IMG/VR virus record: IMGVR_UViG_3300020449_000326
Span: 1-34,412 of that record
DNA length: 34,412 bases
Strand: one strand, 5' to 3'
Source of the DNA: a virus
Taxonomy: Duplodnaviria; Caudoviricetes
The notes under the pieces were generated by a model that ran no database searches, was not told where the DNA came from, and saw only the letters and a program-made list of their open reading frames with translations. Positions 1 to 30,709 of this stretch are shown piece after piece. Every line of letters starts with the position of its first letter. The stretch's first letter is position 1. The position numbers were made by a program, and so were the translations under genes.

Positions 1-756
1 TCTGATTATTGGACCCAAAAAGTTGTATCGTGGTTTCCTAAACATGAAATCCAACAAATGGCCATGATGTTTGGCTCGCAAGAAACAATTCACGCAGTAG
101 CATATTCTTATTTAAATGAAACACTCGGACTCGAAAATTTCGAAGCATTCTTACACGAACCCGCCACGGCCCAGCGCTTCGATAATCTTGTTAGTTACTC
201 TGGTAACAACCCTGTTGGGATTGGCAGGTCTCTCGCTGTATTTTCTGCATTTGCAGAAGGCGTTAGTCTCTATTCCGCTTTTGCTGTGCTATATAGCTTT
301 CAGTTGCGTAATTTGCTCAAAGGCATTGGCCAACAGATGAAATGGAGCGTAAGAGATGAATCACTACATTCTAAAATGGGATGTCAGTTGTTTAGACATA
401 TGTGTAAAGAAACTAAAGGATTACAAGATGATTGTTATGAACACGTTATTAAAGCAGCAAAAACAATGCTTAAAGCAGAAGAAAGATACATTGATAAAAT
501 GTTTGAACAAGGAGATATTGAAAACCTCAAATCTTATAACCTTAAACAATTTATCAGGAAACGCCTTAACGAAAAAATTGTTGAGCTCGGTTACTCAAAC
601 AGTGGGAAATACTTTGAATATGACGAAGTTGGAGCGAGCAGTTTGGACTGGTTCTACCATCTTACCGGGGGGCACACTCATACTGATTTCTTTTCTATTA
701 GGCCGACTGATTACTCAAAAGCTAATGAAGGTGAAGACTTTGAAGATATTTGGTAA
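1..756 (+). CDS. nrdB: Class I ribonucleotide reductase beta subunit (5'-truncated by window edge)
   Basis: Frame open from base 1 (SDYWTQKVVSWFPKHEIQQMAMMF...). Di-metal ligands QETIH, FAEGVSLY and RDESLH; Tyr after the first His (IHAVAY) fits class Ia; acidic C-terminal tail TDYSK...FEDIW. Confidence 0.95.
   Translation, partial: SDYWTQKVVSWFPKHEIQQMAMMFGSQETIHAVAYSYLNETLGLENFEAFLHEPATAQRFDNLVSYSGNNPVGIGRSLAVFSAFAEGVSLYSAFAVLYSFQLRNLLKGIGQQMKWSVRDESLHSKMGCQLFRHMCKETKGLQDDCYEHVIKAAKTMLKAEERYIDKMFEQGDIENLKSYNLKQFIRKRLNEKIVELGYSNSGKYFEYDEVGASSLDWFYHLTGGHTHTDFFSIRPTDYSKANEGEDFEDIW
116..340 (+). CDS. Candidate overprinted membrane protein (74 aa) in +1 frame of nrdB
   Basis: ATG-to-TGA ORF spanning a GC-elevated patch (about 46% at 121-360 vs about 29% at 361-540). 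nrdB uses codons rare in this genome here (CTC, CCC, GCC, ACG, CGC). Two hydrophobic segments. Confidence 0.45.
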   Translation: MKHSDSKISKHSYTNPPRPSASIILLVTLVTTLLGLAGLSLYFLHLQKALVSIPLLLCYIAFSCVICSKALANR

Positions 757-760
757 ATGA
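620..760 (+). CDS. Candidate overprinted small membrane protein (46 aa; frame open from 356) in +1 frame of nrdB
   Basis: MTKLERAVWTGSTILPGGTLILISFLLGRLITQKLMKVKTLKIFGK. GC about 41% at 541-720. Stop overlaps the next gene's start (ATGA 757-760). Confidence 0.4.
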   Translation: MTKLERAVWTGSTILPGGTLILISFLLGRLITQKLMKVKTLKIFGK

Positions 761-1113
761 GAGTTTGTAATGTTTGTAAGAAAAAGAAAAAAGATCATAA
801 GTTTAAACATTTAGGTAAAAAAACTTGCATAAGATGTGAGTTTAGATGGAAAAGATCTTTTATACGGTTATTAGTTCAAGATAGAAGACTTACAGCAAAA
901 GAAAGAATTGCAAACAGATTAGGTTATATGGGTACAGCTTTTATTATGATGTCACCATATTTATTAGCATACGAAGGTATAGGTGTTATAACTTATATTA
1001 TAGGAGGCATACTATCTATACCTCAAGTGTGGGTTGCAAAACAATGGAACTTAGTATTAGTTAATTTAAATGTATCAATAGGATACTTAATATATTATTT
1101 AAATGTGGAATAA
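757..1113 (+). CDS. Zn-finger plus 3-TM membrane protein (PQ-loop/SemiSWEET/PnuC-like topology)
   Basis: N-terminal CNVC...CIRC, then three hydrophobic helices with an IPQV motif. Abuts the nrdB stop and overlaps the nrdA start. Confidence 0.75.
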   Translation: MRVCNVCKKKKKDHKFKHLGKKTCIRCEFRWKRSFIRLLVQDRRLTAKERIANRLGYMGTAFIMMSPYLLAYEGIGVITYIIGGILSIPQVWVAKQWNLVLVNLNVSIGYLIYYLNVE

Positions 1114-2845
1114 CAATTGGGTTAAAGGTAAAGATTATCCTTCATGGGGTGATAATGATGTTTATAAAAAAACTATATCAGGTGGTTATCTTATAAATGG
1201 TGAATCGCCTCGTGATGCATATATGCGTGTTGCTAAAACTGTAGCAAAACGTTTATATAAACCAGAACTTGCAGATAAATTTTTTGATTATATATGGAAA
1301 GGCTGGTTGTGTTTAGCTTCGCCTGTGCTTTCTAATACAGGCGCAGACAGGGGTTTACCTATATCTTGTTTTGGTATTGATGTTGCTGATAGCATACAGG
1401 ATATTGGTAATAAAAATTTAGAAATGATGTTACTTGCAAAACACGGTGGGGGTGTAGGTATCGGGGTTAATATGATTCGTCCTGCCGGAGCTAAAATTAC
1501 AGGTAATGGAACTTCAGACGGCGTTGTCCCTTTTTGCAAAATATATGACTCAACTATACTCGCAACCAACCAGGGTTCCGTTAGAAGAGGAGCTGCAAGC
1601 GTTAACATCAATATTGAACACGACGATTTTGAGGAGTGGCTTGAGATTAGAGAACCTAAAGGAGATATCAATAGACAATCACTTAACCTGCACCAGTGTG
1701 CTGTCGTTGGCGATAAGTTTATGCGAAAGCTTGAGCTTGGAGATCCCGAAGCAAGAAAAAAATGGTCAAAGCTTATACAAAAACGTAAAGCAACTGGAGA
1801 ACCTTATATCTTATTTAAAGGAAATACAAACAAAGCTAATCCAGAAGCATATAAGAAAAATAGTTTAAAAGTTCATATGACTAATATATGCAGTGAAATA
1901 GTATTGCATACCGATGAGTCACATAGTTTTGTTTGTTGTTTATCTTCTGTTAATTTAGATAAATATGATGAATGGAAAAATACTAATCTTATATATGATG
2001 CTACATGGTTTTTAGATGGAGTGCTTGAAGAATTTATTCAAAAAGCTAAAAACATGAAAGGTTTTGAAAATGCTGTAAGATCTGCTGAAAAAGGTAGAGC
2101 TATAGGATTAGGTGTATTAGGTTGGCATAGCTTATTACAAAAAAGAGGTATTGCTTATGAAAGTTTATTAGCACAATTTAAAACACGTGAAATATTTTCA
2201 AAAATAAAAATTGAAACTGAACGTGCTTCAAGAGCATTAGCTGAAATATATGGAGAACCATTATGGTGTGTAGGTACAGGATTTAGAAATACTCATTTGC
2301 GTGCAATAGCTCCAACTGTAAGTAATTCTAAATTAGCAGGTAATGTATCACCAGGTATTGAGCCTTGGGCTGCAAATGTATTTACAGAACAATCTGCTAA
2401 GGGTACATTTATTAGAAAAAATAACGAACTTAAAAAAGTATTAAGAAAAATTGGGATTGATAACAAAGATACATGGGATAAGATTCTTACCGATGGTGGA
2501 TCTGTCCAAGCAATTGATGCACTCAACGGATGGTATTATGATGAAAGAGGAAGACTTAACCAAGAAGATGGAGAGCCAGTCAAAAACGTGTTTAAAACAT
2601 TTAAAGAAATAAATCAACTGGAGTTAGTTAGACAAGCAGGTATAAGACAAGATTACGTTGACCAATCGGTATCACTTAATCTTGCTTTCCCTTCTGAAGC
2701 AACTCCGCGTTGGATAAATCAAGTACATATGGATGCATGGAAACATGGAATAAAAACTTTGTATTATATGCGTACTGAGTCTGTACTGAGAGGAGATATA
2801 GCAGCAGCAGCTATGGATCCTAATTGTTTAAGCTGCGATGGTTAA
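1103..2845 (+). CDS. nrdA: Class I ribonucleotide reductase alpha subunit (short form, no evident ATP cone)
   Basis: SPVLSN, PISCF, GGGVG, RRGA, TNICSEI (catalytic N-C-E), AIAPT, KTLYY and C-terminal CLSC motifs. Confidence 0.96.
   Translation: MWNNNWVKGKDYPSWGDNDVYKKTISGGYLINGESPRDAYMRVAKTVAKRLYKPELADKFFDYIWKGWLCLASPVLSNTGADRGLPISCFGIDVADSIQDIGNKNLEMMLLAKHGGGVGIGVNMIRPAGAKITGNGTSDGVVPFCKIYDSTILATNQGSVRRGAASVNINIEHDDFEEWLEIREPKGDINRQSLNLHQCAVVGDKFMRKLELGDPEARKKWSKLIQKRKATGEPYILFKGNTNKANPEAYKKNSLKVHMTNICSEIVLHTDESHSFVCCLSSVNLDKYDEWKNTNLIYDATWFLDGVLEEFIQKAKNMKGFENAVRSAEKGRAIGLGVLGWHSLLQKRGIAYESLLAQFKTREIFSKIKIETERASRALAEIYGEPLWCVGTGFRNTHLRAIAPTVSNSKLAGNVSPGIEPWAANVFTEQSAKGTFIRKNNELKKVLRKIGIDNKDTWDKILTDGGSVQAIDALNGWYYDERGRLNQEDGEPVKNVFKTFKEINQLELVRQAGIRQDYVDQSVSLNLAFPSEATPRWINQVHMDAWKHGIKTLYYMRTESVLRGDIAAAAMDPNCLSCDG
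1506..1868 (+). CDS. Candidate overprinted protein (120 aa) in +1 frame of nrdA
   Basis: 120 stop-free codons from ATG. GC about 43% at 1501-1740 vs about 29% at 1921-2160. Confidence 0.4.
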   Translation: MELQTALSLFAKYMTQLYSQPTRVPLEEELQALTSILNTTILRSGLRLENLKEISIDNHLTCTSVLSLAISLCESLSLEIPKQEKNGQSLYKNVKQLENLISYLKEIQTKLIQKHIRKIV

Positions 2846-2859
2846 TATAAATTAATAAT

Positions 2860-3069
2860 ATGGGAAAGCGATTTACATTTGCGGATGCAAAAAAAAGAAT
2901 TTTGGATTTAGAAGATGAATTAGCAAAAGTTCAACAAAAAGCTGGAAACGTTATTTTAGATACCAAAGATAATGTTTTTACTAATAAAGAACTTAAGAAA
3001 ATTAGATTCTTAGAACTATGGTCTATATTAGGCCCTATAGTTGGTTTGCTAATTGGTTTGATATTTTAA
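2860..3069 (+). CDS. Small hypothetical protein with coiled-coil N-terminus and C-terminal TM anchor
   Basis: 69-aa ORF with AT-rich leader and terminal hydrophobic helix LWSILGPIVGLLIGLIF. Confidence 0.75.
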   Translation: MGKRFTFADAKKRILDLEDELAKVQQKAGNVILDTKDNVFTNKELKKIRFLELWSILGPIVGLLIGLIF

Positions 3070-3074
3070 ATAAT

Positions 3075-3113
3075 AAAAGGGGATGCTACAATTAAGTAAC
3101 ATCCCTTTTTTTT
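3075..3113. terminator. Bidirectional intrinsic terminator between convergent genome arms
   Basis: AAAAGGGGATGCTAC-AATTAA-GTAACATCCCTTTTTTTT hairpin with A-tract on the left and T-tract on the right. Confidence 0.88.
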
Positions 3114-3339
3114 ATGCCATACCTTTTCTGTCATCAGAAAAAGGCGGAAACAAATATTTATTTAATTGACTGTTGTCATTTTGAGGAGCAACACGTTCAT
3201 ATATATTTTTAGTATTAGCAATTAATGCATCCTCTCTTGTTTTACTTTGTTCTTCTATAGCTTCGTTAATACCTGTAGAACCTAAAGGTTTTGCCCTTTC
3301 TGATTTTTCGGTATTTTTAAAATAACTTTCTTTACTCAT
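3112..3339 (-). CDS. Small hypothetical protein (75 aa, MSKESYF...)
   Basis: ATG at 3339 lies 10 nt after the stop of the giant gene, with an AT-rich leader. The ORF-track extension to 3480 overlaps the giant gene and is unlikely. Confidence 0.7.
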   Translation of the reverse strand: MSKESYFKNTEKSERAKPLGSTGINEAIEEQSKTREDALIANTKNIYERVAPQNDNSQLNKYLFPPFSDDRKGMA

Positions 3340-3349
3340 ATTATTTATT

Positions 3350-6300
3350 TTAATCGTTTTTATGTGCAAATACTTCCCAAGGTAAAGAATGGTCACCTTC
3401 AACCTTCCATTTATTACCATCTTTAATTTTTCCGTTTTTTCTAGCATATTTTTTCTTGCCATAAAAAACAAAATTATCATTATAATCTAGCTTACCACCA
3501 CTTGTAAAAGAGTTACTTCCATTTTGCATTTCTTTTTGATGCAATTTTTCATGTCTTATAACTTCAGCTTTCTTTTTAGGGGATAATCCTTTTGCAACTT
3601 CAATACTTCCGTCTTTATTTGCTCTTCCTAATACTCTGCCACCTGTGTCTTTAACAGGGCTTTTCTTTTCTTTGTTAACTTCTTTTTGTAATTTTTTTAT
3701 ATCTTTTTTTAATTCTTTTTTCTTTGCTTTTTCTTTTTTAGCTTTAGCCCTAGCTTCATCTGTTTTTCTTGCTTGTATGCCAAGTTCCCACTCTCCAAAT
3801 CCCCATACTAAAGCTATTGATTGCCATGCTTTAGTTTCTTCTTCTGTTGCAGTTTTTAAGTTATTTAATTTTTTAACAACTCTATCTGCAGGAATATTAA
3901 CAAAAGCAGAAGCAAGTTCGCCTGCTGCTAATAATGCAGGATTATCTATAGCAACCCCTCGATCATACATTTTTTGAAGCTCTTGCTTATATGTAAACTT
4001 TCTAGCAGCTGATAAAGCTTTTCTAAATTTAGTATCGGTTACAGGTGAAAATGAAAATATTTTATTGGCAGCATATGTAAAATCTGGTCTAGATTTTTTT
4101 CTTTGTCTATCAATTTCTAAAAGAACATTTTTTAACATTGCTACAAAAGCACCACCAACACCACTACCCCTAAGTAATGTATCAGCTATACCGTTTATTA
4201 TTCTTAAAGGTGCACCTTCTTTTCTTTCTTGTTTAAATTGAGCTTCTTTTTCACCAACTTCCTCATCTTCTTCGTCAAACATAATACCAAATAAAGCACT
4301 CTGTAATGCTGTAAATATAATATTTTGTATAGCACCATAATAAAGTATCTTAGAAACGTTTGTTTTAGCGTCCCCACGTCCATTTTTAAGATCACTGGCG
4401 GCTTTTTTTATTAATCTTGCATATTGTACTGGCGTGTTTGCATAAGACAATATAATACGTCCTAATTGACTAGCCTGTTGCATACTAATTCTTGACGGAT
4501 CAGATGATTGTTGTGACTCAATTGCAATATTTCTAAAATCAAAAAATGCTTTTTCTTGAGCTTCTTTTTCACTAAGCCCTTCTTTTTTATATTTATTAAG
4601 CCTGTTTCTATAAAATGAAGCTCCTCCTATAGCTATTGCAAAACTATCCGCAATTTGTGTACTTATAAAACCAACTTTAAGTAATTCATTTAAGGCAGCT
4701 CTAACTTTATTTTTAGATGTCGCGGCAGTACTTGCAATTTCATCTGCACTAATATCTATTTGTAATCCAGATCTTCTTTGTTTTAAAAAATCTGAATTAA
4801 ATAAATCTGCAAAATCTTTCCAAAACTGCGGTTGATCAGCAAAAGCTTTAGCAGCCATTATTGGATTATTATCTGACCAATTAAGAAAATTAATTGCAGA
4901 TATAGTTTGTAATAATGAAGATCTTTGATTGAAAAACATTGTTGTACCAACAGAATTATTAAGCCAGTTAAGCCACATATTAGTAACTCTATTTGCACCT
5001 GTTGGTCTGTTCCTGCCTGTATCCATTCTATAAAGAACATCATCTAAAGCTTCAACATACCTATCACCAAATGTTGCTCTTAATTTATTTACATTATCTT
5101 TAGTATATATTAAATCAATTGATTGTCTCCAAGGTTTTAAAAATTCTCTACGAGTTACTGTGTTAACTTCATTAATTAAATCAGTTGTAATATTACCAGA
5201 TAACCAATTATTAGTTGGTTCGGGGTATCCATTAGAGCCTATATTTTGTAATTCATGTGCGAAAGCTTTTAGCTCAGGATTTTTATTAACATGTTTTCTT
5301 AACTCTGTTATATCTTTTTTAGCTAAATTATCTGGAATCATTCCTTGCTTATCCCATAAATATATCCTTACAGCTTCTTCATTTGTAAACCCTCTAACAG
5401 CTTTTCTTTTTAAATTTGCAGGTGTATTTTTAATTTTACCTTTTAGCTGTTTCCATTCTTGCATTGCCGCCTGTTTAGCAGTTTCATAATCTTGTATTCC
5501 TTGATTATAAGGATCCATCACATTATCCGTCCACCATTTTAAATCAGCATCACCTTGTTTGCCTTTACCAAGTGTTGGATATACTAAGCCCATATAGTCT
5601 TCATTAGAATATGGAACAAATGCTTGCCAACCTTTTGTAGCACCTAATTTAATTGCTCTTGCTTCAGAATATACAGCTTCAGCTTTAATACCTTTAGTTC
5701 TTTCAAGCATTTCGTTAAACTCTCTGCTTAATGTACTTTCACTTGATGAAGATAAACCAATATTAATTTTTTCTCTTTCTTTTAATTGATTTTGTAATTC
5801 TTCTCTTCTAGCTTTAGTGCTAGGCGTAATATTAAAGTTAGATTCATATTCTTCAATTAATTGAAGTTCTTGATATATTGGATCTAATTTACTTTGTGAA
5901 TAAAGACCTCCACTTTCAATATTTTTATCTTCTAAATTTTTCTTACTATTCTCATTTTTTAAATAGGTTTGTTGACCGTTACCATTAACAAAATCATCCC
6001 AAGTATATTCTATGCCTGTAGAAATTTGTGTTAAAGGTAAATTTTTAAATATTGGTAACTCTGGATTAAAATAGCCGCCTAAAGCATTATTACTATAAGG
6101 TGCACGGAAATTTTGATAATTTACATTTACCGCATCATCATATAATTTAGGAATCTGCGCTGACTTATAAGAATCTAATCTTTTATAATATTCTTTTTTA
6201 GAAGCTTTTGGATTAAGTAAATAATCAAATGTTGCGGCAGTCATTATATTAGCCGGATCCATATGTTCTAATCTCCATTCACCTTTTACTTTAGATAGAT

Positions 6301-9300: not shown

Positions 9301-11587
9301 CTAAATCATTTATTCTATCCATTGTTTGACCCCAGCTTTTAAGTTCTTCAGGAGTCATTTGGTTTTCAAATTTATCAGTTATATAATCTTCTTTTGCTTT
9401 TCTTTGGTTTTTTAGTTTATTTATTTCAGCTTGTACATTTTTTTTATTTATAAATCTACCTTTTTTATCTTGTCCTTTTTTTAAAATATCTTCAAGCTCA
9501 AATATTTGTTGATCTAAAAGATCAAACTCAAGCTGCATTCCAGGTCCGCCTAAATATTTATATGCATTTAATCTAGCTTTCTTTAAACTTGCTTTACTTT
9601 GAAAAACATTTAGACTTACTGCTCCAGCAGTTGTGCCACCACCGGCAACTGAACCAATAATTGCTTGATTAACAGTATTTTTCCATAAATTTTTAAATGC
9701 TTTTTCGTCGTCTAATATTACAGCATCAGTTAAACCTTGACCAAACCCAGTTACACCTTCAGTTCCACCTTCAACGACCATTCCTTCTAAGGTTTTTCTA
9801 CCTCCTCCAAGAAGTCTATATTTAAAACCTGTTATACCTTCTTGTAAAGTTTTATTAATATCACTTGCTATTTTTTCTCTACTTACACCATTAGCTCTAG
9901 CTGCTTTACCATAATTTTTTAATGTTCTAAAAAATTTACCTGCTGCAAATTCAGAACCCCATTCAATACCACCTTTTAATAAACTAGCTCCTGCTAATGT
10001 AAGTACATTTTTGTCTACTAATTCTGGATTTTTTAATCCTCTTGCAAATTCTTGACCAGTTGTACTAGCACCTAATAAAATAGGGGCTAGCCAAGGTGCA
10101 TAAATTGTTGCTGCAATTGAAGGTGCTGTACCTACTGCTTCATTAATTGCTAAATTTGCTGCACCTGAATAATTACCTTCTTTTATTAAATCGGTAATTT
10201 GCATTTGTTCACCTTTATTATTAAAGTATCTTACTTTAGCTTGACCTAAAAAATCAGCAGCATCATATATACTACTTACATCAATATTGTTTTGTTTTGA
10301 AAGTTTACTAAAAGCAGTAGAAAAATCTTCTTCTTCACCTATAGTAGCTAAAAACGCAGCATCAACCGCATTAATTCCCATTTCAGCAAAGTCTATTAGT
10401 CCTCCAGTTGTATTTAAAAGCATGTTACCAATTGCTGCCACTTGAGGCACAACATAATCTTCACTAAATTCAGGAGCAAGGCTAGCTATCATTCCAGGAA
10501 TACCCCCTACACCAGGCACAATAGCTGAATATTTCATTGAAGAATTTATTGCTTTTCTAGTTAATTCAGTTTCTCGATCATATGCATTTTTTAATTGAGG
10601 CCCAATGTTTTTATTATAAGCATCATTATATTGCTTAACTATATCTTGGTACCTTTTATTATTTTGTAAGTTTTCTTGAAATCTATCATTAGTAAATTTT
10701 TGCATTTCATCATTATAAGCTTTAAGCTCTTCAGGATGCTTTGCTTGAATTTCTGCGTTTATAAAATTATTTATATATTTTTGATATTTATTATAAGCAG
10801 CTTTAAAACGTTCTTGTAAACCAGGAGAACCATCATCTACTGGGCCATATTGCCCTTGTTCATTAGTACCATAAGGAATACCAGCTTGTTTTAAAAACTC
10901 TTCTAGTTTTCTTGCAAAATGATTTTGATTTTGATTTAATATTGTTTGCTTAGCAGATGTTAACCCAGTACGATCCATTGTATCTATACTATGCTGCTTT
11001 AAATAAGGTTCATTTTGTGTTTGAACATCTTTTGCTATCTTTTTTATTCTTGGATCAGAATATAAATTTTTAAAAAAATTTTGTTGTTGCTTATTTACAT
11101 CAGTCTCTGAAGTGCCATCAAGTTTATTTTCTTCAAACCAATCTTCTGTAATATAAGCTTCTTGTTCTGGAGTTAATTTTTCTACCTCTGGTTTTTCACC
11201 TGTTACAACAACTTCTTCTAACGGAACCTCTTCTAAAACTTCTTTACCTGTTATAGGATCATATTTAATACCTACCTTAAGTCCTGCATAAGGTTTTGAT
11301 ATATCCTCTCTCATTTTTTTACCTACTATTCTGGCGTTGCCATCGTCGTCAGTTACAAAAGTAGATGTAATTCTTTCTTTTTTTATTGGAACACATTTTT
11401 CTTGTACAGGATCATATGTTAAATTAGGATCACCACAATCAACTTCTTCTGTTTCAACAGTATCTTCTACTTGCTCAATATTTTTTAAAGGAGAAAGACT
11501 AGATTTGTAGTGCTTAATAACTTTAGCAATATTAGACTCTGGCTCATTGGCCGCTAACATATTTTTTACAATGGTTTCTAAACTCAT
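3350..11587 (-). CDS. Giant (2745 aa) multidomain internal virion/ejection protein
   Basis: Lies at the end of the structural module after the pilot-like genes. Has a Gly/Ala hydrophobic helical region, HELNH and HEKLH zincin-type motifs, a sigma-region-2-like segment and a long helical C-terminal part. Confidence 0.8.
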   Translation of the reverse strand: MSLETIVKNMLAANEPESNIAKVIKHYKSSLSPLKNIEQVEDTVETEEVDCGDPNLTYDPVQEKCVPIKKERITSTFVTDDDGNARIVGKKMREDISKPYAGLKVGIKYDPITGKEVLEEVPLEEVVVTGEKPEVEKLTPEQEAYITEDWFEENKLDGTSETDVNKQQQNFFKNLYSDPRIKKIAKDVQTQNEPYLKQHSIDTMDRTGLTSAKQTILNQNQNHFARKLEEFLKQAGIPYGTNEQGQYGPVDDGSPGLQERFKAAYNKYQKYINNFINAEIQAKHPEELKAYNDEMQKFTNDRFQENLQNNKRYQDIVKQYNDAYNKNIGPQLKNAYDRETELTRKAINSSMKYSAIVPGVGGIPGMIASLAPEFSEDYVVPQVAAIGNMLLNTTGGLIDFAEMGINAVDAAFLATIGEEEDFSTAFSKLSKQNNIDVSSIYDAADFLGQAKVRYFNNKGEQMQITDLIKEGNYSGAANLAINEAVGTAPSIAATIYAPWLAPILLGASTTGQEFARGLKNPELVDKNVLTLAGASLLKGGIEWGSEFAAGKFFRTLKNYGKAARANGVSREKIASDINKTLQEGITGFKYRLLGGGRKTLEGMVVEGGTEGVTGFGQGLTDAVILDDEKAFKNLWKNTVNQAIIGSVAGGGTTAGAVSLNVFQSKASLKKARLNAYKYLGGPGMQLEFDLLDQQIFELEDILKKGQDKKGRFINKKNVQAEINKLKNQRKAKEDYITDKFENQMTPEELKSWGQTMDRINDLESKIDNPKFTRDEQDAAINEIKELREEQKEAFKPIPSDVSVDEKGIVTYSPDADKTISQMLKRKLSKDAKKSFDQIKDDADVIVINDSQREKYGMQENESGKIVKTKDGRFKIALNEDAMIRVKDGATTINHELNHLVFVRDLVNNDKNAIPLIENFRSFIKENLPGVNERIESRMKKNYKNAEDVRANLEFVAIFTDIAGKEKLGIPKVPESAFGELASGINNWLKSKGFKKIKLNTGEDVFNWIQEFNKNIKKGKYKDALRKIDSDNVTDGGVSEAFITGEFPSLSSKSDVIEDINFEEGSINERFQEFSHDGKNNNAPQEFQTEAAITYEPLAAAVIDRISKVGIGKAGTEQQNNFITDALEDSTLKQQLIDDLVYGTERNPASSLVGLAKTFNPAVGSFGGYAKSQLANRAIRVLQERVGGQVTEGATSTDTAESRQLEDTAGQSVQSKQSLREAFKNTTLGEALNKKLGKVAESAPKGIEQTIEKKGKDLTKLPTKRKAEAVDTAKKQYSSKYLYTDVANLFGKKQQFIDNVNKYYPAVIDAWMNNVNWSKGMGISTGFNIESKPTQQETVDYLTGNDLVVGTINKKGDPLTKKGKTDAIGARKRKFLESIATQLVNENIADNKIAQSDFIKKHGVGLLSTSNTLKGIKKENANIYNDIAAALLKMDDAYINNYVTPKGKLIRFKPLLTSLGIDEILNNTYTEKKAERYFNNLVNELNEIQKNIPAKNREEYIKGKDFNLVDRNTGKKIPYTFANFLRAKISQTADIQNLKDIAAGYGYNLELNYNDKESVERYRKEFGEALLSDPKINKSFALNILLPTFTAPSKIGGGAIGVNIDGDIVETGKKAGTNRQGIFGGEVGAVADFKNLINNLDWDAPIFDSKGKEVKRSTKQYTRPQGGIYSLLEKPLNNKNGERALPFIAYKDPVLGVQAGLQYQQYLKDFVESIKNSNIGVDTKAILVQAMKANPSGLIRMAAIPDFIPSFVIKKDSQGNISIDLSKVKGEWRLEHMDPANIMTAATFDYLLNPKASKKEYYKRLDSYKSAQIPKLYDDAVNVNYQNFRAPYSNNALGGYFNPELPIFKNLPLTQISTGIEYTWDDFVNGNGQQTYLKNENSKKNLEDKNIESGGLYSQSKLDPIYQELQLIEEYESNFNITPSTKARREELQNQLKEREKINIGLSSSSESTLSREFNEMLERTKGIKAEAVYSEARAIKLGATKGWQAFVPYSNEDYMGLVYPTLGKGKQGDADLKWWTDNVMDPYNQGIQDYETAKQAAMQEWKQLKGKIKNTPANLKRKAVRGFTNEEAVRIYLWDKQGMIPDNLAKKDITELRKHVNKNPELKAFAHELQNIGSNGYPEPTNNWLSGNITTDLINEVNTVTRREFLKPWRQSIDLIYTKDNVNKLRATFGDRYVEALDDVLYRMDTGRNRPTGANRVTNMWLNWLNNSVGTTMFFNQRSSLLQTISAINFLNWSDNNPIMAAKAFADQPQFWKDFADLFNSDFLKQRRSGLQIDISADEIASTAATSKNKVRAALNELLKVGFISTQIADSFAIAIGGASFYRNRLNKYKKEGLSEKEAQEKAFFDFRNIAIESQQSSDPSRISMQQASQLGRIILSYANTPVQYARLIKKAASDLKNGRGDAKTNVSKILYYGAIQNIIFTALQSALFGIMFDEEDEEVGEKEAQFKQERKEGAPLRIINGIADTLLRGSGVGGAFVAMLKNVLLEIDRQRKKSRPDFTYAANKIFSFSPVTDTKFRKALSAARKFTYKQELQKMYDRGVAIDNPALLAAGELASAFVNIPADRVVKKLNNLKTATEEETKAWQSIALVWGFGEWELGIQARKTDEARAKAKKEKAKKKELKKDIKKLQKEVNKEKKSPVKDTGGRVLGRANKDGSIEVAKGLSPKKKAEVIRHEKLHQKEMQNGSNSFTSGGKLDYNDNFVFYGKKKYARKNGKIKDGNKWKVEGDHSLPWEVFAHKND

Positions 11588-20216: not shown

Positions 20217-20239
20217 TTATATGTTATTATAATTAGTGA

Positions 20240-20269: not shown

Positions 20270-20275
20270 GTAAGC

Positions 20276-21055: not shown

Positions 21056-21065
21056 AATAAAATAA

Positions 21066-21106
21066 TATAAAATAAGGATATAGGGCTCCGAAGAGCCCGT
21101 ATCCTA
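21066..21106 (-). terminator. Intrinsic terminator/attenuator after the major capsid gene
   Basis: Minus strand AGGATACGGGCTC-TTCG-GAGCCCTATATCCT then TATTTTAT. C(UUCG)G tetraloop. Confidence 0.8.
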
Positions 21107-21115
21107 TAGTTAAAA

Positions 21116-22711: not shown

Positions 22712-22733
22712 AATGTTTTGATTTTAAGTTAAA

Positions 22734-24047
22734 CTATTTCCATTTAATTCGCAACTTATCAGAGGAATCTCCTGAAACAACTCTAATTCTATCACCACTA
22801 TTAGTTGTTATTGTAGCACCTTCCTGTCTAGGATCCATATTTATATTTTTAGCTTTTTTAGCTGACTCTTTTATTGCATCGGCACGGCCTTGCTCATAAA
22901 AATGATTAGCTATTTTATCAGCATTTCTTGCTGTAAATATTGCTTTATGATATTCATTAAGATTGGTGTAATTAGTATCTTTAATATATGGTTGTAAAAA
23001 ATTTGATATATCAGATTGAAACTCTTTAACTTTGCCCGGGTCGTCTACTTTAAACCTGTATTTGTTTTCGCCTACCTTAAAATCAAAACCTTTGAATTCT
23101 TCGTTAAAAACTTTATTAGTTTCATTTAGAAAACTTTTTTTAGCTAAGTTAGTTTGCTCTGCTTGTTGCTTAGATGTATTATAAAAATCAACTGCTTCTT
23201 TATACTCAGAAGGAATATTTTTTTGTTTTGAACTTAACTTAAGATCATTATAATATTTTTCTTTTGTATCATGAAGTAATTGTTGAGCTTTATATACCTC
23301 TTCTTTAAAAGCTAATTGCTTAGCTTTTACGTCAGACGGATCGTCCGCCTCCACATCATATGAAAAGTTTTTATCCATTAAAAATTGAATATCTTCTTTA
23401 TCAAGATGTGGTTTAGTGTATTCGTAATATTCTTTTAAAAGACTTACGTTATCTATTTTAGAATAATCCCTATTTAGTTTTGCATAATCTTCTACTGTTC
23501 CACCAGTTTCTTGCATAAACTGTATAAGCTTATCTACTCCTTCAGGAAGTTCTTGTGTTTTTTCTTCCTGTAATATTTCTTTTTGTTCCGATATGGGCTT
23601 GGTAGCTTGAGGCTTTCTATCCATTCCCTCCTCGTTAGTGTTATTTTCTCCATCTTTAATTAATTCTAACGGTGAATCAGAAGAATCTTCTTTTATTTCC
23701 TCTTTCGACTCTTGAACAGGCCGTACTTCTTCTTCCACTTTTTGTATATCTCCGGTTGGTTTATCCTCAGGTACATCTCTTGTTTCTTGCTCTGGAACGG
23801 CATTTGTTTCTTCTTTTTTTGTTTCTTCTTTTATTTCTTCTTTAGGTGTTGGAGGTTTATCTAAATTAACTTTATAAACTCCATCATCTTGTAATCCATA
23901 TTCAGGTGCAACTTTACCTTCATCAACTGCTTTTTGTAAAACAGCAGCTTCTTTTTTAGCGGGGGTTACAGTTTCAGGATTAATTTCACCTATGTCTTTA
24001 ACATCTATAGATGGTTCTTGTTTGTTATCTTTAACTTCTTCTTTCAT
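22734..24047 (-). CDS. Putative capsid scaffolding protein
   Basis: Long acidic disordered N-terminus, FMQETGG.VEDY..LNRDY and ANHFYEQG.ADA motifs. Lies between portal and MCP. Confidence 0.75.
   Translation of the reverse strand: MKEEVKDNKQEPSIDVKDIGEINPETVTPAKKEAAVLQKAVDEGKVAPEYGLQDDGVYKVNLDKPPTPKEEIKEETKKEETNAVPEQETRDVPEDKPTGDIQKVEEEVRPVQESKEEIKEDSSDSPLELIKDGENNTNEEGMDRKPQATKPISEQKEILQEEKTQELPEGVDKLIQFMQETGGTVEDYAKLNRDYSKIDNVSLLKEYYEYTKPHLDKEDIQFLMDKNFSYDVEADDPSDVKAKQLAFKEEVYKAQQLLHDTKEKYYNDLKLSSKQKNIPSEYKEAVDFYNTSKQQAEQTNLAKKSFLNETNKVFNEEFKGFDFKVGENKYRFKVDDPGKVKEFQSDISNFLQPYIKDTNYTNLNEYHKAIFTARNADKIANHFYEQGRADAIKESAKKAKNINMDPRQEGATITTNSGDRIRVVSGDSSDKLRIKWK
23534..23653 (-). CDS. Overprinted 39-aa basic protein with ArfA-like C-terminal motif (+1 frame of scaffold)
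   Basis: MEKITLTRREWIESLKLPSPYRNKKKYYRKKKHKNFLKE*, ATG after AATTAATTAAAG, TAG stop. Not in the ORF track. Confidence 0.7.
   Translation of the reverse strand: MEKITLTRREWIESLKLPSPYRNKKKYYRKKKHKNFLKE
23693..23803 (-). CDS. Overprinted 36-aa basic protein MPFQSKKQ... (+1 frame of scaffold)
   Basis: MPFQSKKQEMYLRINQPEIYKKWKKKYGLFKSRKRK*, A-rich leader. Resembles a recalled family of standalone small phage proteins (MPFKS.KQ..Y...N.PEI...W...YG). Confidence 0.7.
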   Translation of the reverse strand: MPFQSKKQEMYLRINQPEIYKKWKKKYGLFKSRKRK

Positions 24048-24078
24048 AATTGTATATAATAAAATAATTGTTTAATAT

Positions 24079-26526: not shown

Positions 26527-26528
26527 AT

Positions 26529-28763
26529 TTATTTTATTAACTCGCTTTGATACCCTTCATTTTTGTATCGTGAAAATTCAAAATCTAATTTTTTAACTGT
26601 TCTATCTGTACTAGGTTTATATAAATGTTTTCTACAAGCCATTATAGCTAAACCACTACTTATAGATGCATCAAAAGATGTTCTACGTGAAATATCAAAC
26701 CTTGCCCAGTCTTCTAAAGTTCTTTGAAAATACATATTACCATAAGAATCATCATTTCTTCCAACATATTCTTCAATATAAGATTCAATAGCAGCTGCAT
26801 GAGCTTGCTTAATGTCTTCAGAACTATTAGGTATACCTCCTAATTCTAGTTCAGTTTTAGATAAAGCACCTTTTAATTTATCAGGTCTATTCATAGAAAA
26901 ACCTCTATACCCTCTTCTTTTAATATGATATAGTAATCTTGGTTTATTATTTTCAACTAATATAGGCATACTATAAAATATGCATGCCATTAATACATCT
27001 TCAAAAAATATTTCTGCCGTTTGTGGTCTTGCTATATATTCTAAAAAAAATTTAGTATTAGGTACATCGCTAGTCATAGTAAATGTAGTTAACCCATGTA
27101 AAGACCCATTCGAACCACCACCCCCAACTGTTCCTGATATATCATAAGGATCACACCCAAAAGCACCTAATCCATCATTACCAGGATATTTTATACCATT
27201 TTTTTCAATAATATTATTTTGTAATTGATCTGGAGGTAACCAAGATATTTTAAATCTACCGTTTTGTGTTGGTGTCCATATTACTTTACTATCTTTTATT
27301 CCATTTTGCCAAGAAAAAGCTCCTCGTACAATATGGCCATTAAATTCCATTTCTTCATTATAATCTATTTGTTCATAAATTTTAGTTAAATTAAATAAAG
27401 AATTTAATGTTTCATCTCTAAATGCATGCTTTTCTGATCTTGGAAATTGTCTATAATATTCATTTAAAGCATCACTATCATTTTTTAAACCTTCAACCTC
27501 ATTCTCCCAGTGTTCAAGGACTCCCGTATAGATGAGTTCACCATCAATTCCTTCAACCGGATCTGATGGAGTGGTGAAGACAGGATATCCATACTTATCA
27601 ATAAATCCTTCGAAACCCCATTCCATAGGTATGAACAAAGAGTATAGTCCACTTGTAGTCTGGCCATTGCGATTTCTGTTTGTAACATCTGAATTATAAT
27701 ATAATTTTTTAAATTTATCACCGCCCTTATCTAATGCATTAGAAGTGGAGCCCATCATACATTTACCAACTACTTTCGACCCGAGGCGGAGACACGTTTT
27801 TGTAACCCTCCAGTTATTGAGGATGTTGTCCGGCCTCTCCCATTTACCCGATTCGTCGTGGATGAGGAGTTGTAATTTCTCCCCGTCGTATGAATTGTCC
27901 CCCGTGTTCTTCCAGTCAATTGTGGTGTCCAATCCGTCCTGTATCTCAGAGGGGGCGGGGCTGGTGGCTCGTATCGTATTCCTCGTGAGCCTCCTTGATG
28001 GTACTTTGTACGAGAGTTCCGTTTTTGGACGTTCCATACCATCCTGTATTGGTTTAAAAAAGAACGGGTAATTAGTCGAGATTGGGACCACCTTATCCGT
28101 GAACATCTTCTTAGCGTCTGCTCCACTCTTAGATAAGATCCCAAATCTAGAGTCTTTTGAAGTTGTAGCCTGATGAACACATTCTGATGACGCCATAAAG
28201 GAGAAACCAGACCGTCTATTCTTAAGGTAGCACATCCCATAGCATCTGCTATCAGCCTTGCATGCTTCCCAAAAGTAGAAAAATATCCTGTTTGCATGTC
28301 GAAAGTCTGGGGAGCCCACATCGATCTTAGTCCAGTTGAGATAAATATAGTGCGATCCTGTAAGGTAGCACGGGGTACCGTTGCACATGAACCAATAACC
28401 ATCATTACGATAATTAAACTCATTATCGATGTAACTATAATATTGGTCTTTAATATCTTCAGTATAGCTTTGAAAATCATATAATGTTTTTATTCTTGTT
28501 AATGATTGTGGTCTTTCCCTTTTTATAAATACTTGATTTTCTTTTTTTAAATTTTTACCGTGTATTTTTTTAGGGGTTTGAGGTATACCTACCTTAAGAC
28601 CTTGTATTTCATATATATCACCTAATGTACCGTCCTTACTAATAATAACACAATCTAAATCACTATTATATCCATATTTAAATTTTTTATTTTTATTTAA
28701 ATTTTTGGTATATTTTTTATCTAAATGATCTGTATGTATTTTATATAAAGTTTGTTTATACAT
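26529..28763 (-). CDS. terL: Terminase large subunit
   Basis: Walker A-like KNRRSGFS, Walker B LLIHDESGKW, coupling motif GSTSN, nuclease motif GCDPYD, and LVENNK. Confidence 0.93.
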   Translation of the reverse strand: MYKQTLYKIHTDHLDKKYTKNLNKNKKFKYGYNSDLDCVIISKDGTLGDIYEIQGLKVGIPQTPKKIHGKNLKKENQVFIKRERPQSLTRIKTLYDFQSYTEDIKDQYYSYIDNEFNYRNDGYWFMCNGTPCYLTGSHYIYLNWTKIDVGSPDFRHANRIFFYFWEACKADSRCYGMCYLKNRRSGFSFMASSECVHQATTSKDSRFGILSKSGADAKKMFTDKVVPISTNYPFFFKPIQDGMERPKTELSYKVPSRRLTRNTIRATSPAPSEIQDGLDTTIDWKNTGDNSYDGEKLQLLIHDESGKWERPDNILNNWRVTKTCLRLGSKVVGKCMMGSTSNALDKGGDKFKKLYYNSDVTNRNRNGQTTSGLYSLFIPMEWGFEGFIDKYGYPVFTTPSDPVEGIDGELIYTGVLEHWENEVEGLKNDSDALNEYYRQFPRSEKHAFRDETLNSLFNLTKIYEQIDYNEEMEFNGHIVRGAFSWQNGIKDSKVIWTPTQNGRFKISWLPPDQLQNNIIEKNGIKYPGNDGLGAFGCDPYDISGTVGGGGSNGSLHGLTTFTMTSDVPNTKFFLEYIARPQTAEIFFEDVLMACIFYSMPILVENNKPRLLYHIKRRGYRGFSMNRPDKLKGALSKTELELGGIPNSSEDIKQAHAAAIESYIEEYVGRNDDSYGNMYFQRTLEDWARFDISRRTSFDASISSGLAIMACRKHLYKPSTDRTVKKLDFEFSRYKNEGYQSELIK
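27485..27688 (-). CDS. Candidate overprinted 67-aa protein (+1 frame of terL)
   Basis: ATG at 27688 after a very AT-rich stretch. GC about 41% at 27481-27660, falling to about 26% at 27301-27480 just past its stop. Confidence 0.45.
   Translation of the reverse strand: MLQTEIAMARLQVDYTLCSYLWNGVSKDLLISMDILSSPLHQIRLKELMVNSSIRESLNTGRMRLKV
27770..28480 (-). CDS. Overprinted 236-aa putative lipoprotein (+1 frame of terL)
   Basis: Basic plus hydrophobic signal ending IGS-C32, and a Pro/Arg/Ser/Thr-rich tail. GC about 53% at 27781-28020 vs about 23% at 28501-28740 within the same terL gene. Confidence 0.7.
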   Translation of the reverse strand: MIFKAILKILKTNIIVTSIMSLIIVMMVIGSCATVPRATLQDRTIFISTGLRSMWAPQTFDMQTGYFSTFGKHARLIADAMGCATLRIDGLVSPLWRHQNVFIRLQLQKTLDLGSYLRVEQTLRRCSRIRWSQSRLITRSFLNQYRMVWNVQKRNSRTKYHQGGSRGIRYEPPAPPPLRYRTDWTPQLTGRTRGTIHTTGRNYNSSSTTNRVNGRGRTTSSITGGLQKRVSASGRK

Positions 28764-29011
28764 TATTTAATTCTATTTTCAACACCCAAGAAAGCTTTTG
28801 ACTTTTTGTTATCTTTTTTCTTATCAGATATTTCTTCAATTTTATCTATAATTTTTAAAGAATCTTCAATTGCAACCCATTTAGCTTGTGCTGCAGTTTT
28901 AGCTTTTTCAGGATCAAGTTCATTAAGATCTATATTTTGCCTAATTACTTTTTCAAGTTCTACTAAAGCTTTTTCAGCAGCTAATATAACCTTGTCTCTC
29001 TTTTGTTCCAT
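28763..29011 (-). CDS. Putative terminase small subunit
   Basis: 82-aa helical ORF, TAATG-coupled to terL. ELDPEKAK.AA.AK..AI.DS..I motif. Confidence 0.6.
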   Translation of the reverse strand: MEQKRDKVILAAEKALVELEKVIRQNIDLNELDPEKAKTAAQAKWVAIEDSLKIIDKIEEISDKKKDNKKSKAFLGVENRIK

Positions 29012-29564
29012 ATTTTATTGTTATGTGATGTGAAAAAATACGATATAATTTTTCTCCTTCAATATTAAACTCATATTCTGAATCAGGTGTAAAGCCCACC
29101 ACGTCTCCAACGGACACTCCTAATTGATTTAATTTATGATTACTATATGTAAGTATACCTAAAAGATTTTCGTCTGTTTTAAGAGCCCATTTATCTTTTT
29201 TATATAAAGGCTTTACAAAACAAAAATTAGGTAAACTTCTCCATTTATTATTTCTTTTATAAGCAAATATTTGATCATCAGAAACTAAATATTCATTTTC
29301 ATTTAAAAAACTTGAAGAATTTTTTTGAATTCCTTCTACATCAATCCATCTTCTAAAAACATTATGATGCACAATAACCTCATCGTTTTCTTTTAATTCT
29401 GAATTATTATATAATGGTAACTTTACTATTTTACCTATACGATTAACAAACATATAATCTCTTTCAGTAACTTCTGTATTAACGACTAATTCCTTACCTT
29501 CAACATCAATGGTGTTGTTGTAGCGATTTTCAGTAGATATAATATATTCAAATAAAGATTGCAT
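28974..29564 (-). CDS. GroES-like co-chaperonin (tandem SH3-like barrels)
   Basis: DEVIVHHNVFR, FCFVKP and GDVVGF.P.SEYEF.IEGEKLYR motifs typical of phage GroES-like proteins upstream of terminase. Confidence 0.65.
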   Translation of the reverse strand: MQSLFEYIISTENRYNNTIDVEGKELVVNTEVTERDYMFVNRIGKIVKLPLYNNSELKENDEVIVHHNVFRRWIDVEGIQKNSSSFLNENEYLVSDDQIFAYKRNNKWRSLPNFCFVKPLYKKDKWALKTDENLLGILTYSNHKLNQLGVSVGDVVGFTPDSEYEFNIEGEKLYRIFSHHITIKYGTKERQGYISC

Positions 29565-29785
29565 TAATAATCTAAATTATATTCAACAGATACAGCCATG
29601 TTAGCATTAAAATGTTTCCATGGTAATACTTCTTTATTTTTTGTAATATAAATTTTATAAGCACCTTCCTCTTCTAAAATGTCACAAATTGTATGTCCTC
29701 CATAAACCTCTTGACCTACAGAATAATGCATTGCTTCATTTTTATAATCGGTGCCAATACTAATTTTTCTAATTAATTTTGCCAT
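29564..29785 (-). CDS. Conserved small hypothetical protein
   Basis: IRKISIG.DYK..AMHYSVGQ.VYGGH motif. TAATG-coupled to the next gene. Confidence 0.8.
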   Translation of the reverse strand: MAKLIRKISIGTDYKNEAMHYSVGQEVYGGHTICDILEEEGAYKIYITKNKEVLPWKHFNANMAVSVEYNLDY

Positions 29786-29795
29786 TTAATTTTAT

Positions 29796-30146
29796 TTAAT
29801 ATGTCCAAAGAGTTATAGGTGGAGCATCAGGATATCCAATACCTACGTGAACAAAATTATTTTTTCTGCTAACTCCTATTCTTGTAAAGCCAACGTCCAT
29901 GGCAGCTTTAACTAATTTAAATGTTGCCTCGCCTCCAATGCTTGCAATATCAACGGCGGCACCATAAGCATGTTCTCCCGGTGCTTTTTTCTTTGCTTCT
30001 ATTGGATGATCCGGACTTCTATAACTAGATGTAATTTTTATAGGTGATCCATAAGCTTCTCGTAAATCATCTAGCATTTTAAGAAGCTTTTTATCCATCA
30101 TTTTATATTGATTAAATTCAGATTCATTAAAATATTTTAAAGGCAT
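29796..30146 (-). CDS. Peptidase M15 family endolysin
   Basis: YF..SEF, LDDLRE.YG.PI.ITS.YR, H..G.A.DI and FVH zinc-ligand pattern. Confidence 0.85.
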   Translation of the reverse strand: MPLKYFNESEFNQYKMMDKKLLKMLDDLREAYGSPIKITSSYRSPDHPIEAKKKAPGEHAYGAAVDIASIGGEATFKLVKAAMDVGFTRIGVSRKNNFVHVGIGYPDAPPITLWTY

Positions 30147-30147
30147 T

Positions 30148-30297
30148 TTATTTACTATTTAATTTATTTTTTATACCTATTACGGTATATACTATTGTTA
30201 ATAATAATACTACTGTTTGTAGCAGCGGATTTATATCTGGCATTATAGAGAAGGTTATACCACCTAAACTTATGCCATAAATTCTTAAGTCTTGCAT
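30148..30297 (-). CDS. Small holin-like membrane protein (49 aa)
   Basis: MQDLRIYG... with hydrophobic segments and a basic C-terminus, adjacent to the endolysin. Start chosen at the ATG just after the upstream stop. Confidence 0.6.
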   Translation of the reverse strand: MQDLRIYGISLGGITFSIMPDINPLLQTVVLLLTIVYTVIGIKNKLNSK

Positions 30298-30298
30298 T

Positions 30299-30709
30299 TT
30301 ATTTGTGCATTTTATTTCCAAAGACTTTCTCCACACCTCGCGATCCGAAATAGCCTCCGATTACTATTGTTAATAAACCGGTTATTGAATCAAGTGGATA
30401 ACCTAAGTACCACCCAATTACATAGCTTACTGTTAAAAATATTAATGTTAAAGGACGAACATTAGCCGCAAGCCATGCTCCTGAGCCAGCATCCGCCACC
30501 CATCTTTCTGTTGTCCCATCTATTTCAGCTCTTTCTAGTTTTAGTTTTTCTAATGCAATTTCTTTATCACCATCAGACATTTCACTGCTACCTATTATAG
30601 CCTCTATAATACCACCGGCTGGTGTGCCACTAGCAATTGATCCAACTACAGTTGGTATTTTTTTTAATAAAAATTTTCCAACTGCAGTATCTTTAAATTT
30701 CTTTTTCAT
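30299..30709 (-). CDS. Holin, 3TM/GTA-holin-like family
   Basis: RW.AD..S..WL..NVRP.TL, TM helices and GYFGSRG.EK signature. Confidence 0.75.
   Translation of the reverse strand: MKKKFKDTAVGKFLLKKIPTVVGSIASGTPAGGIIEAIIGSSEMSDGDKEIALEKLKLERAEIDGTTERWVADAGSGAWLAANVRPLTLIFLTVSYVIGWYLGYPLDSITGLLTIVIGGYFGSRGVEKVFGNKMHK

Follow-up and report, generated by a model that had tools for sequence, protein, structure and literature searches.

Gene callers discard open reading frames (ORFs) nested on the same strand inside a longer gene, and to our knowledge most known examples of nesting in tailed phages are spanin pairs. Phage T7 carries genes 19.2 and 19.3 inside gene 19 (terminase) and gene 18.7 inside 18.5, on which our literature search found no paper, and protein D of phage phiX174 is a scaffolding protein. 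In phage lambda, Rz1 is embedded in the +1 frame of Rz, an arrangement described among the embedded two-component spanins (PMC6139136), and the phiX174 overlaps E, within D, and K are de novo genes on essential genes with a composition footprint at third codon positions, in keeping with the overprinting that is well known in small viruses (PMC8227390). Here we analyse a 34,412-nt stretch of tailed-phage DNA, the whole IMG/VR record IMGVR_UViG_3300020449_000326 (hereinafter the window), in which +1 ORFs lie inside the genes for the terminase large subunit (terL), ribonucleotide reductase (RNR; nrdA and nrdB) and a putative head scaffold. It is highly probable that this lineage keeps a second +1 layer in these four genes, translated separately via internal initiation and with two origins, and up to eight unannotated proteins are very likely encoded there. 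The features of the three enzyme genes (aa, amino acids) are:

26529..28763, minus strand: terL, host gene, 744 aa (phrog_6681, E 1e-173)
27770..28480, minus strand: terL-A, +1 ORF, 236 aa, pI 11.7, conserved core at about host codons 95-230
27485..27730, minus strand: terL-B, stop-free +1 frame of 81 codons, start at GTG 27721, ATG 27688 or ATG 27667
1103..2845, plus strand: nrdA, host gene, 580 aa (PF02867, PF00317)
1506..1868, plus strand: nrdA-1, +1 ORF, 120 aa, predicted four-helix bundle
2493..2612, plus strand: nrdA-2, weaker candidate +1 ORF, 39 aa from its first ATG, stop-free from 2445
1..756, plus strand: nrdB, host gene cut by the left contig end (PF00268 from profile position 88; open from base 1)
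116..340, plus strand: nrdB-N, +1 ORF, 74 aa, two hydrophobic segments, start variable among relatives
356..760, plus strand: nrdB-C, +1 ORF of at most 134 aa with one hydrophobic segment, conserved from about 557 onwards

Like lambda Rz1, terL-A is a lipoprotein-like gene read from the same strand as a late tailed-phage gene and nested in its +1 frame. The host of Rz1 is the i-spanin gene Rz, whereas that of terL-A is a terminase gene with no partner found, and mature Rz1 has 40 aa with 10 prolines, whereas terL-A is an Arg/Thr-rich product of 123-237 aa with 9 prolines in 236 (compared with the account in PMC6139136). Also unlike lambda Rz1, terL-A belongs to a set of up to eight overlaps spread over four genes. 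phiX174 is a small single-stranded DNA phage, whereas the window comes from a tailed double-stranded DNA phage of probably ~60 kb (the record is 54% complete) whose overlaps sit in terminase and RNR and, unlike those of phiX174, are gained, lost and changed in length among relatives. T7 shares with terL-A and terL-B the presence of out-of-frame ORFs inside a podophage large-terminase gene, a likeness for which no homology is expected, and we know of no T7 counterpart to the selection evidence or to the captured-peptide route presented below.

The closest cultured terminases are those of Flavobacterium elemo phages (44.5%) and of Maribacter phage Panino and Cellulophaga phages phi13:2 and phi38:1 (37-40%), so the likely source of the window is a flavobacterial podophage. 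These phages and the uncultured MW202828.1 (terminase identity 37-62%) have a similar head-gene order but, unlike the window, all carry stops across terL region A; phi38:1 falls in marine Flavobacteriaceae phage group 2 (PMC5332604). No cultured member of the overlap-bearing clade was present in the collection searched, and a literature search, thin on subscription journals and excluding supplements, found no paper describing these terL, nrd or scaffold overlaps. Distinctive here are the number of overlaps in one tailed phage, their seat in terminase and RNR, their turnover between clades and the apparent capture of a mobile peptide cassette.

Dual-coding signatures in terL, nrdA and nrdB

The original prediction named eight GC-rich patches coinciding with ATG-to-stop ORFs in the +1 frame, of which seven are supported here (two each in terL, nrdB and the scaffold gene and one in nrdA) and one, in the holin gene, is not; the term ATG-to-stop is loose for terL-B, which has no single conserved ATG, and for nrdB-C, whose usual ATG is missing in the window. 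Most structural genes have a G+C content at third codon positions (GC3) of ~0.10-0.15, and the capsid gene one of 0.20, but GC3 is 0.51 versus ~0.10 in terL 27770-28489 (z 16.6), and it is also raised in terL 27485-27730 (0.31), nrdB 116-340 (0.42), nrdB 353-757 (0.29) and nrdA 1476-1868 (0.28), with hardly any shift at first and second positions (GC1 and GC2), which stay near control. The +1 and +2 frames of 28 window genes contain 2,540 stop-free intervals, for each of which we calculated the probability under synonymous codon resampling (P0), a measure biased low for runs bounded by stops. The four least likely intervals are all in the +1 frame: terL-A (28489-27770, 239 codons, P0 3.4e-9), nrdA-1 (from 1476, 3.2e-8), nrdB-C (from 353, 5.8e-8) and nrdB-N (from 116, 3e-5), the first three passing Bonferroni correction and nrdB-N being borderline. 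By P0 alone, terL-B (0.0019) and nrdA-2 (4e-4) are inseparable from a control ORF at 4858-5043 (9e-4), although GC3 is shifted in terL-B (z 4.2) but not in the control (z -0.7). That control and the +1 ORF at 4204-4395 (GC3 0.15 versus 0.12 in its own gene) had been named as chance ORFs that show no GC shift, with which these values agree. Other GC-rich stretches, in the capsid gene and at 32475-33992, reflect Gly/Ala content and have low GC3. The second frame covers 2,288 of the 34,412 bases (6.6%).

Relatives were drawn from the best 80 terL loci (of 599) and the best 80 nrdA loci (of 598), giving after filters, window included, 81 terL, 80 nrdA, 74 nrdB, 63 portal, 45 scaffold, 35 capsid, 59 GroES-like, 18 holin and 11 endolysin sequences. 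Expected +1 stops were computed per locus from its own codon usage; the model is calibrated on terL codons 431-744 (1825 seen, 1824 expected), and observed/expected ratios (O/E) in control genes are 1.05 (portal), 0.97 (GroES-like), 1.00 (endolysin), 0.95 (holin) and 0.76 (capsid). The relatives share descent, a point against leaning on totals, as pooled stop counts are not independent and describe a pattern, not P values. Across nrdA codons 141-240 there are 6 stops versus 645 expected, with nrdA-1 open over codons 140-250 in 79/80 sequences. Depletion is also found at nrdB codons 171-230 (0 versus 275; nrdB-C open over 171-228 in 74/74), terL codons 345-403 (7 versus 123.7; terL-B open over 348-400 in 78/81) and nrdB codons 41-80 (26 versus 181; nrdB-N open over 30-80 in 56/73 and closed in 17/73). 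terL-A is open over codons 128-222 in 56 of 80 sequences, and the nrdA-2 region (codons 452-484) in 29 of the 41 that cover it, versus 1.2 expected. By the same counts, the portal, GroES-like, endolysin and holin genes of the relatives contain no hidden layer, and no sustained stop depletion appears in the +2 frames of the tested genes.

A +1 stop can arise only from a host NTA codon before A or G, or an NTG codon before A. In the 79 open nrdA-1 sequences, Leu, Ile and Val use NTA at 0/1102 sites before A/G versus 310/569 before C/T, and the corresponding fractions in nrdA outside nrdA-1 are 0.53 and 0.60. Likewise, NTA occupies 2/163 stop-forming versus 255/450 harmless Leu, Ile and Val sites in terL-B (all 81) and 0/481 versus 49/134 sites in nrdB-C (all 74); the 24 relatives lacking terL-A use it at 84/143 stop-forming sites there. 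As the codons are avoided only where a +1 stop would form, the pattern indicates stop avoidance rather than composition. Nor does the host protein force the frame open, since an ingroup nrdA of 87% identity (L115) carries 6 stops in the region. Outgroups have stops in the overlap regions of nrdA (4/4, from four phages at 41-61% identity), nrdB (3/3), terL region A (5/5) and terL region B (4/5, the open one having 0.5 stops expected there), and all outgroup nrdA, nrdB and terL sequences are near expected stop counts bar one terL. The nrdA sequences from bacterial genome contigs lie on misbinned-looking phage contigs (27/28 open) and offer no true bacterial control.

Distances at four-fold sites, composition-corrected and computed from non-overlapping neighbour pairs with bootstrap intervals, are reduced relative to control with non-overlapping intervals for terL-B (ratio 0.39), nrdA-1 (0.48), the terL-A core in the window clade (0.48) and nrdB-N (0.61); intervals overlap for the terL-A tail (0.67), nrdB-C (0.75), transmembrane (TM)-type terL-A (0.77) and closed relatives (0.84), and two portal controls give 1.02 and 1.34. 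The original prediction had called for synonymous constraint in the patches, few +1 stops in close relatives and patch limits set by ORFs rather than by a recombining donor, and all three are borne out, as GC3 tracks ORF length with no sign of a donor segment (see below).

nrdA-1 begins at host codons AAT GGA (hidden Met-Glu) in 80/80 sequences, with neighbouring Gly codons variable, and ends at codon 255 or 259. Its profile retrieves 63 proteins resembling the same overlap, several fused to RNR domains, with gene context unseen. AlphaFold predicts four helices (predicted local distance difference test, pLDDT, 67; predicted template modelling score, pTM, 0.58), a model that host-frame covariation may inflate. 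In 74/74 sequences nrdB-C extends 2-65 codons beyond the nrdB stop; the added tail is often acidic and alike among relatives, a mark of nrdB-C being a gene. In the window its stop overlaps the ATG of the next gene (ATGA at 757). Lacking the usual ATG but open from 353, the window copy would start at 356 or 620. In four relatives (L150, L134, L133 and L107) nrdB-C continues 43-65 codons in frame, apparently into the next small gene.

terL-A comprises a hydrophobic leader, a lipobox-like motif (Ile-Gly-Ser-Cys32) and a basic tail predicted to be disordered; its AlphaFold model is confident for the leader only (mean pLDDT 44). A FastTree phylogeny was built from 75 ingroup terL rows, after removal of 5 short ones and 1 duplicate, and rooted on 3 outgroups. 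The outgroups are closed, and the open state changes 6 times along the tree versus a shuffled mean of 20.8, which probably reflects a single gain of terL-A and about five losses. In the clade of the window (18 rows, support 100) the hydrophobic leader terminates in Gly-Ser-Cys, and 17/18 members conserve the start. Host codons under the lipobox are nearly fixed (TTC 19/19, TGC 18/18, AAC 18/19) against backgrounds of 35/304 (12%), 8/40 (20%) and 72/338 (21%), and one relative (L007) has replaced the host Cys by Arg and kept the hidden lipobox Cys. Kyte-Doolittle (KD) hydrophobicity of the leader is 2.72 versus 0.50 in closed relatives. In the outgroup MW202828.1 the same host residues give hidden Gly-Leu-Cys-Val, with stops nearby. 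The remaining 36 open copies (TM-type) have another hydrophobic segment ~15 codons later (KD 2.93 versus 1.21 in closed relatives). ORF ends vary from host codon 225 to 331 (length 123-237 aa), and the composition follows: in 11 long-ORF genes GC3 climbs at codon 101-121 and holds at ~0.5 as far as codon 330, and in 4 short-ORF genes (ends at 225-230) it drops beyond codon 230, behaviour not expected of a high-GC donor segment. The uncorrected synonymous profile has no dip over most of the ORF; a dip appears only after composition correction.

Taken individually, nrdA-1 and terL-A very probably code for proteins, and nrdB-C and terL-B with good probability. nrdB-N, the least secure of the five enzyme-gene ORFs originally named given its variable start and 17/73 closed copies, is still fairly likely to be coding, and for nrdA-2 the balance tips slightly towards coding.

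Several further open frames were observed. In other clades, nrdA is open over codons 290-415 (38/80), 360-440 (32/80) and 10-90 (29/79), of which the window shares none, having only 452-484; in L082-L160, clade-specific +1 frames of up to ~160 codons occupy nrdA codons 1-101, 286-443 and 357-493. The holin ORF (30448..30519, minus strand, 23 codons) was rejected as chance: P0 is 0.09, GC3 z is 1.6, O/E is 0.95 in 18 sequences and, of the 8 closest holins, the frame is open in the window and 2 others and closed in 5, making a coding role very improbable. The claimed hidden layer accordingly stands for terL (two ORFs), nrdA, nrdB (two) and the scaffold gene (two), and does not extend beyond these four genes. 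A +1 stretch in the capsid gene (22710-22450, 86 codons, P0 0.018) was likewise discarded, as relatives carry stops there. Capsid relatives show 51 +1 stops versus 140 expected at host codons 221-260 (35 sequences), which may reflect codon bias or a further overlap in some clades. A small gene with one TM segment follows the holin (30148-30336), and its frame reaches ~20 codons upstream into the 3' end of the holin gene; GC3 is 0.43 in that part, yet relatives lack stop depletion there. MW202828.1 (L284) has long +1 stop-free runs in its portal gene (26840-29275, codons 582-657, P0 2e-4) and in 47708-48925 (codons 241-355, P0 0.013), among 1,025 intervals.

The window otherwise holds nrdB (cut at the left end), nrdA, a gene for a 2,745-aa protein, virion protein genes, and genes for capsid, putative scaffold, portal, terminase, a GroES-like protein, an M15 peptidase and holin. 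The terL-scaffold stretch is present in marine metagenomes and in one metatranscriptome (run X5, 0.98 of words), whose contigs show neither strand nor translation.

Scaffold peptides and a portable segment

Two further +1 ORFs lie in the scaffold gene, each assigned by protein homology:

22734..24047, minus strand: putative head scaffold, host gene, 437 aa, labelled from its place between the portal and capsid genes
23693..23803, minus strand: scaffold passenger 1, +1 ORF, 36 aa, basic peptide of MPFKS type
23534..23653, minus strand: scaffold passenger 2, +1 ORF, 39 aa, basic peptide of EW..NKKKY type

The host gene has no family match of its own in Pfam and PHROG scans, and in the window alone the passengers are non-significant as open frames (P0 0.34 and 0.40; GC3 0.25 and 0.28). 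Their identification comes from profile hidden Markov models (HMMs), which match the window ORFs at E 4e-14 (MPFKS type) and 3e-19 (NKKKY type); the NKKKY HMM was built from 5 other phages and found 23653-23534 in the window. By HMM, the 45 scaffolds comprise 29 with MPFKS alone, 5 with NKKKY alone, 2 with both (the window and L037) and 9 with neither, and by pattern 32/45 have an MP[FYI]-type ORF in the acidic N-terminal region. Outgroup scaffolds lack the peptide segment and are shorter (357 and 339 aa versus 437), with an N-terminal offset of 84 codons.

The MPFKS type matches 515 database proteins and is annotated as a gene of its own in phages 023Pt_psg01 and FlowerPower. Its best 80 loci split into 32 nested in scaffolds and 48 non-nested, and the 45 distinct non-nested copies comprise 27 small genes and 18 that open longer proteins. 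In L177, L178, L180, L186, L224, L236 and others, at ~2501, the motif opens proteins as long as 861 aa, an arrangement suggestive of a tag for targeting or DNA binding; unannotated matches occur in cyanophages P-RSP2 (L241 2501-2575) and S-CBS2 (L243 2501-2572). In non-nested copies the -1 frame averages 3 stops per 29 codons and is open in only 4/45, and the Phe codon is TTC in 17/45, versus 30/30 in nested copies. The NKKKY type is nested in 78/80 loci in one scan, the other 2 being cut by contig ends, and free-standing in 9/80 in a second. The window's two peptides had no tblastn match among cultured phages, and a relative's MPFKS peptide matched 12 records there.

The outgroup MW202828.1 has a scaffold without the peptide, but an unannotated MPFKS-type gene (~9594-9724, minus strand) lies in the +1 frame of its 3,860-codon virion gene UOF82488.1, where the host frame over the cassette reads almost as in scaffolds L027 and L049. 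In a scan for this subtype, the 80 loci comprise 68 in scaffolds, 10 in long genes, of which 4 match the giant protein outside the cassette, and 2 cut copies. The simplest reading would be capture and movement of a dual-coding segment. Both scaffold peptides in all likelihood code for protein and were probably inserted whole from existing genes. Overprinting, as originally proposed, would hold for the enzyme genes, whose outgroups are closed, and not for the scaffold ORFs, which come from free-standing gene families and look captured.

Links to described families are weak. The free-standing basic phage peptide phrog_1375 matches the MPFKS type at best E 4e-4 (9/26 members), and the free-standing phrog_6310 matches the NKKKY type (E 0.002-0.004), whose copies in the window lineage are nested out of frame. 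NKKKY relatives match DUF7230/PF23876 at best E 2e-4 (22.2 bits, below the curated 27 bits), and the window's NKKKY peptide has no DUF7230 match. ArfA carries a Gly-Lys-Gly-Ser motif before a basic tail and acts in RF2-dependent rescue; the motif is absent from the 46 peptides compared, and none of 8 family members tested against PF03889 (ArfA) had a match, even at E values as high as 2. In Atlas, one cluster was 23% ArfA at 0.90 with a recognition score below threshold, leaving ArfA a distant lead only.

Internal initiation and alternative explanations

Bacteroidetes initiate without Shine-Dalgarno sequences, by mRNA structure and upstream bases including an A at -3 (PMC6847099), a trait that may ease initiation inside genes. 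Upstream A content is 0.50-0.63 at conserved hidden starts, 0.34-0.37 at other +1 ATGs and 0.52 at annotated starts, and the terL-A and nrdB-C start regions are unstructured; together these make internal initiation of the hidden ORFs plausible. A number of observations weigh against the proposal of separately translated hidden proteins. A-richness partly follows the host amino acids, the favoured A at -3 is mostly absent from conserved hidden starts (0.00-0.16), and the nrdA-1 start region is as structured as other +1 ATGs. In terL-B there is no universal ATG, with none in codons 345-369 for 13/81, and the nrdB-C ATG, present in 69/74, is ACG in the window. Constraint is weak for nrdB-C (0.75) and for TM-type terL-A, whose 0.77 is near the 0.84 of relatives that lost it, and hydrophobicity of nrdB-N is nearly equal in relatives with stops. 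Relative L067 combines an open TM-type terL-A with a separate lipoprotein gene. Pfam and PHROG assign no function to the hidden ORFs, with nothing significant for those in enzyme genes; likewise, no function follows from the nrdA-1 model, which has no Foldseek match at E 0.001 in PDB or BFVD, or from terL-A, for which no i-spanin partner was found.

The patches could instead be segments from a higher-GC donor, in which a shortage of codons ending in A/T would leave the +1 frames open as a side effect. Phage genomes are commonly mosaic, and a GC3 rise alone lowers +1 stop frequency, but NTA codons stay common in the patches except where a stop would form, GC1 and GC2 differ little from control, and the host proteins are no less similar to relatives within the patches, which recur at the same codons in relatives 65-95% identical. 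Together with GC3 ending at each relative's ORF end, the NTA context largely refutes a donor origin, which we regard as extremely unlikely. Programmed +1 frameshifting yielding fusion products, above all in terL-B, would fit the lack of a fixed ATG there under the strongest synonymous constraint, and one database protein (P0033, a single contig) joins a scaffold N-terminus to the MPFKS peptide. Set against this are the invariant Met-Glu start of nrdA-1, the leader peptide that opens terL-A, the own Met of both scaffold families as free genes, the absence of an evident invariant shift motif in terL codons 340-404 and the presence of ATG, GTG or TTG within codons 345-369 of every terL-B, so that frameshifting seems improbable.

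The frames might also be open for a non-protein reason (regulatory translation, translational coupling or RNA structure) that renders the peptides irrelevant. The window nrdB-C stop overlapping the next ATG and the disordered terL-A tail of varying length would fit, but residue-level lipobox conservation, recognisable peptide families, the protein-like nrdB-C tail outside the overlap and the helical nrdA-1 model speak for proteins; such a reason is possible for terL-B and nrdA-2 and, as a general account, very unlikely. For the scaffold ORFs, de novo birth inside the scaffold followed by escape as free genes would agree with the abundance of nested copies in the lineage (68/80 and 78/80 best loci). 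Free copies or matches in phages of unrelated hosts (Streptomyces, cyanobacteria), the shorter outgroup scaffolds without the segment and the occurrence of two unrelated families in the same region, singly or together, point the other way and render escape rather improbable.

The two origins favoured here would proceed as follows. In de novo overprinting of the conserved enzymes (terL, nrdA, nrdB), host amino acids would stay fixed while host third positions, which are the hidden second positions, are recoded away from A/T, and this recoding would produce the GC patches. In the scaffold, an existing small Lys-rich gene would be captured into a disordered region; read one base earlier, it would give a tolerated acidic Glu/Gln/Thr linker, and the segment could sit in different host genes.

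Candidate functions and implications

The hidden ORFs may represent accessory genes with functions. No separate lipoprotein or i-spanin gene was found upstream of terL in the window and 5 clade members with at least 3.3 kb of flank, leaving room for a lysis role of terL-A. A late exported lipoprotein, accessory to lysis in a cassette without a visible spanin, is a tentative proposal for terL-A, and receptor blocking a somewhat less likely one. Two spanin architectures were considered and rejected: an embedded o-spanin, since the host gene is terL and no i-spanin was identified upstream, and a unimolecular spanin of the T1 gp11 type, since the C-terminal part is basic and polar without a C-terminal TM segment (both as outlined in PMC6139136). 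The lipobox-like motif has Gly at -2, off the consensus given there. A free-standing lipoprotein beside a closed terL-A has 1 clear case among closed relatives, whose flanks are short. Lipoprotein-like free genes lie upstream of terL in L040 (~7.9 kb, 163 aa) and L067 (~2.5 kb, 88 aa) and are possible spanin candidates. Relatives L022-L080 have a conserved gene of 80-98 aa before a 73-aa gene, ~1.1-1.4 kb upstream of terL, where the window's clade has an endolysin-holin cassette.

For the scaffold peptides, nucleic-acid binding or head targeting, with production alongside the capsid, is a possibility that falls just short of even. nrdA-1 as a soluble helical host-interaction protein is a tentative proposal of lower probability, and nrdB-N and nrdB-C may be small membrane proteins. 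We lean slightly towards a broader picture, in which a basic peptide gene with an acidic-linker neighbour frame forms a portable dual-coding cassette moving among virion genes and, with the slots in terL and RNR, amounts to a second accessory genome within the core genes of an abundant marine phage group. The cassette would settle in disordered parts of virion genes that are otherwise unrelated, those for the scaffold and the giant virion protein, and pass from one to another; the +1 slots in terminase and RNR would be gained, extended and lost between clades.

The phage group is large, with ~11,000 stored IMG/VR stretches matching the terL patterns, and individual overlaps occur in it in open, closed, short and long form, which allows gene birth, growth and loss by overprinting to be compared directly. 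Capture of a finished gene into the linker of another would be a second, little described route to overlap. Terminase and RNR are marker genes assumed to evolve under one constraint, to which the overlaps would add a second frame, and the hidden proteins would form a pool of candidate lysis, head and host-interaction factors.

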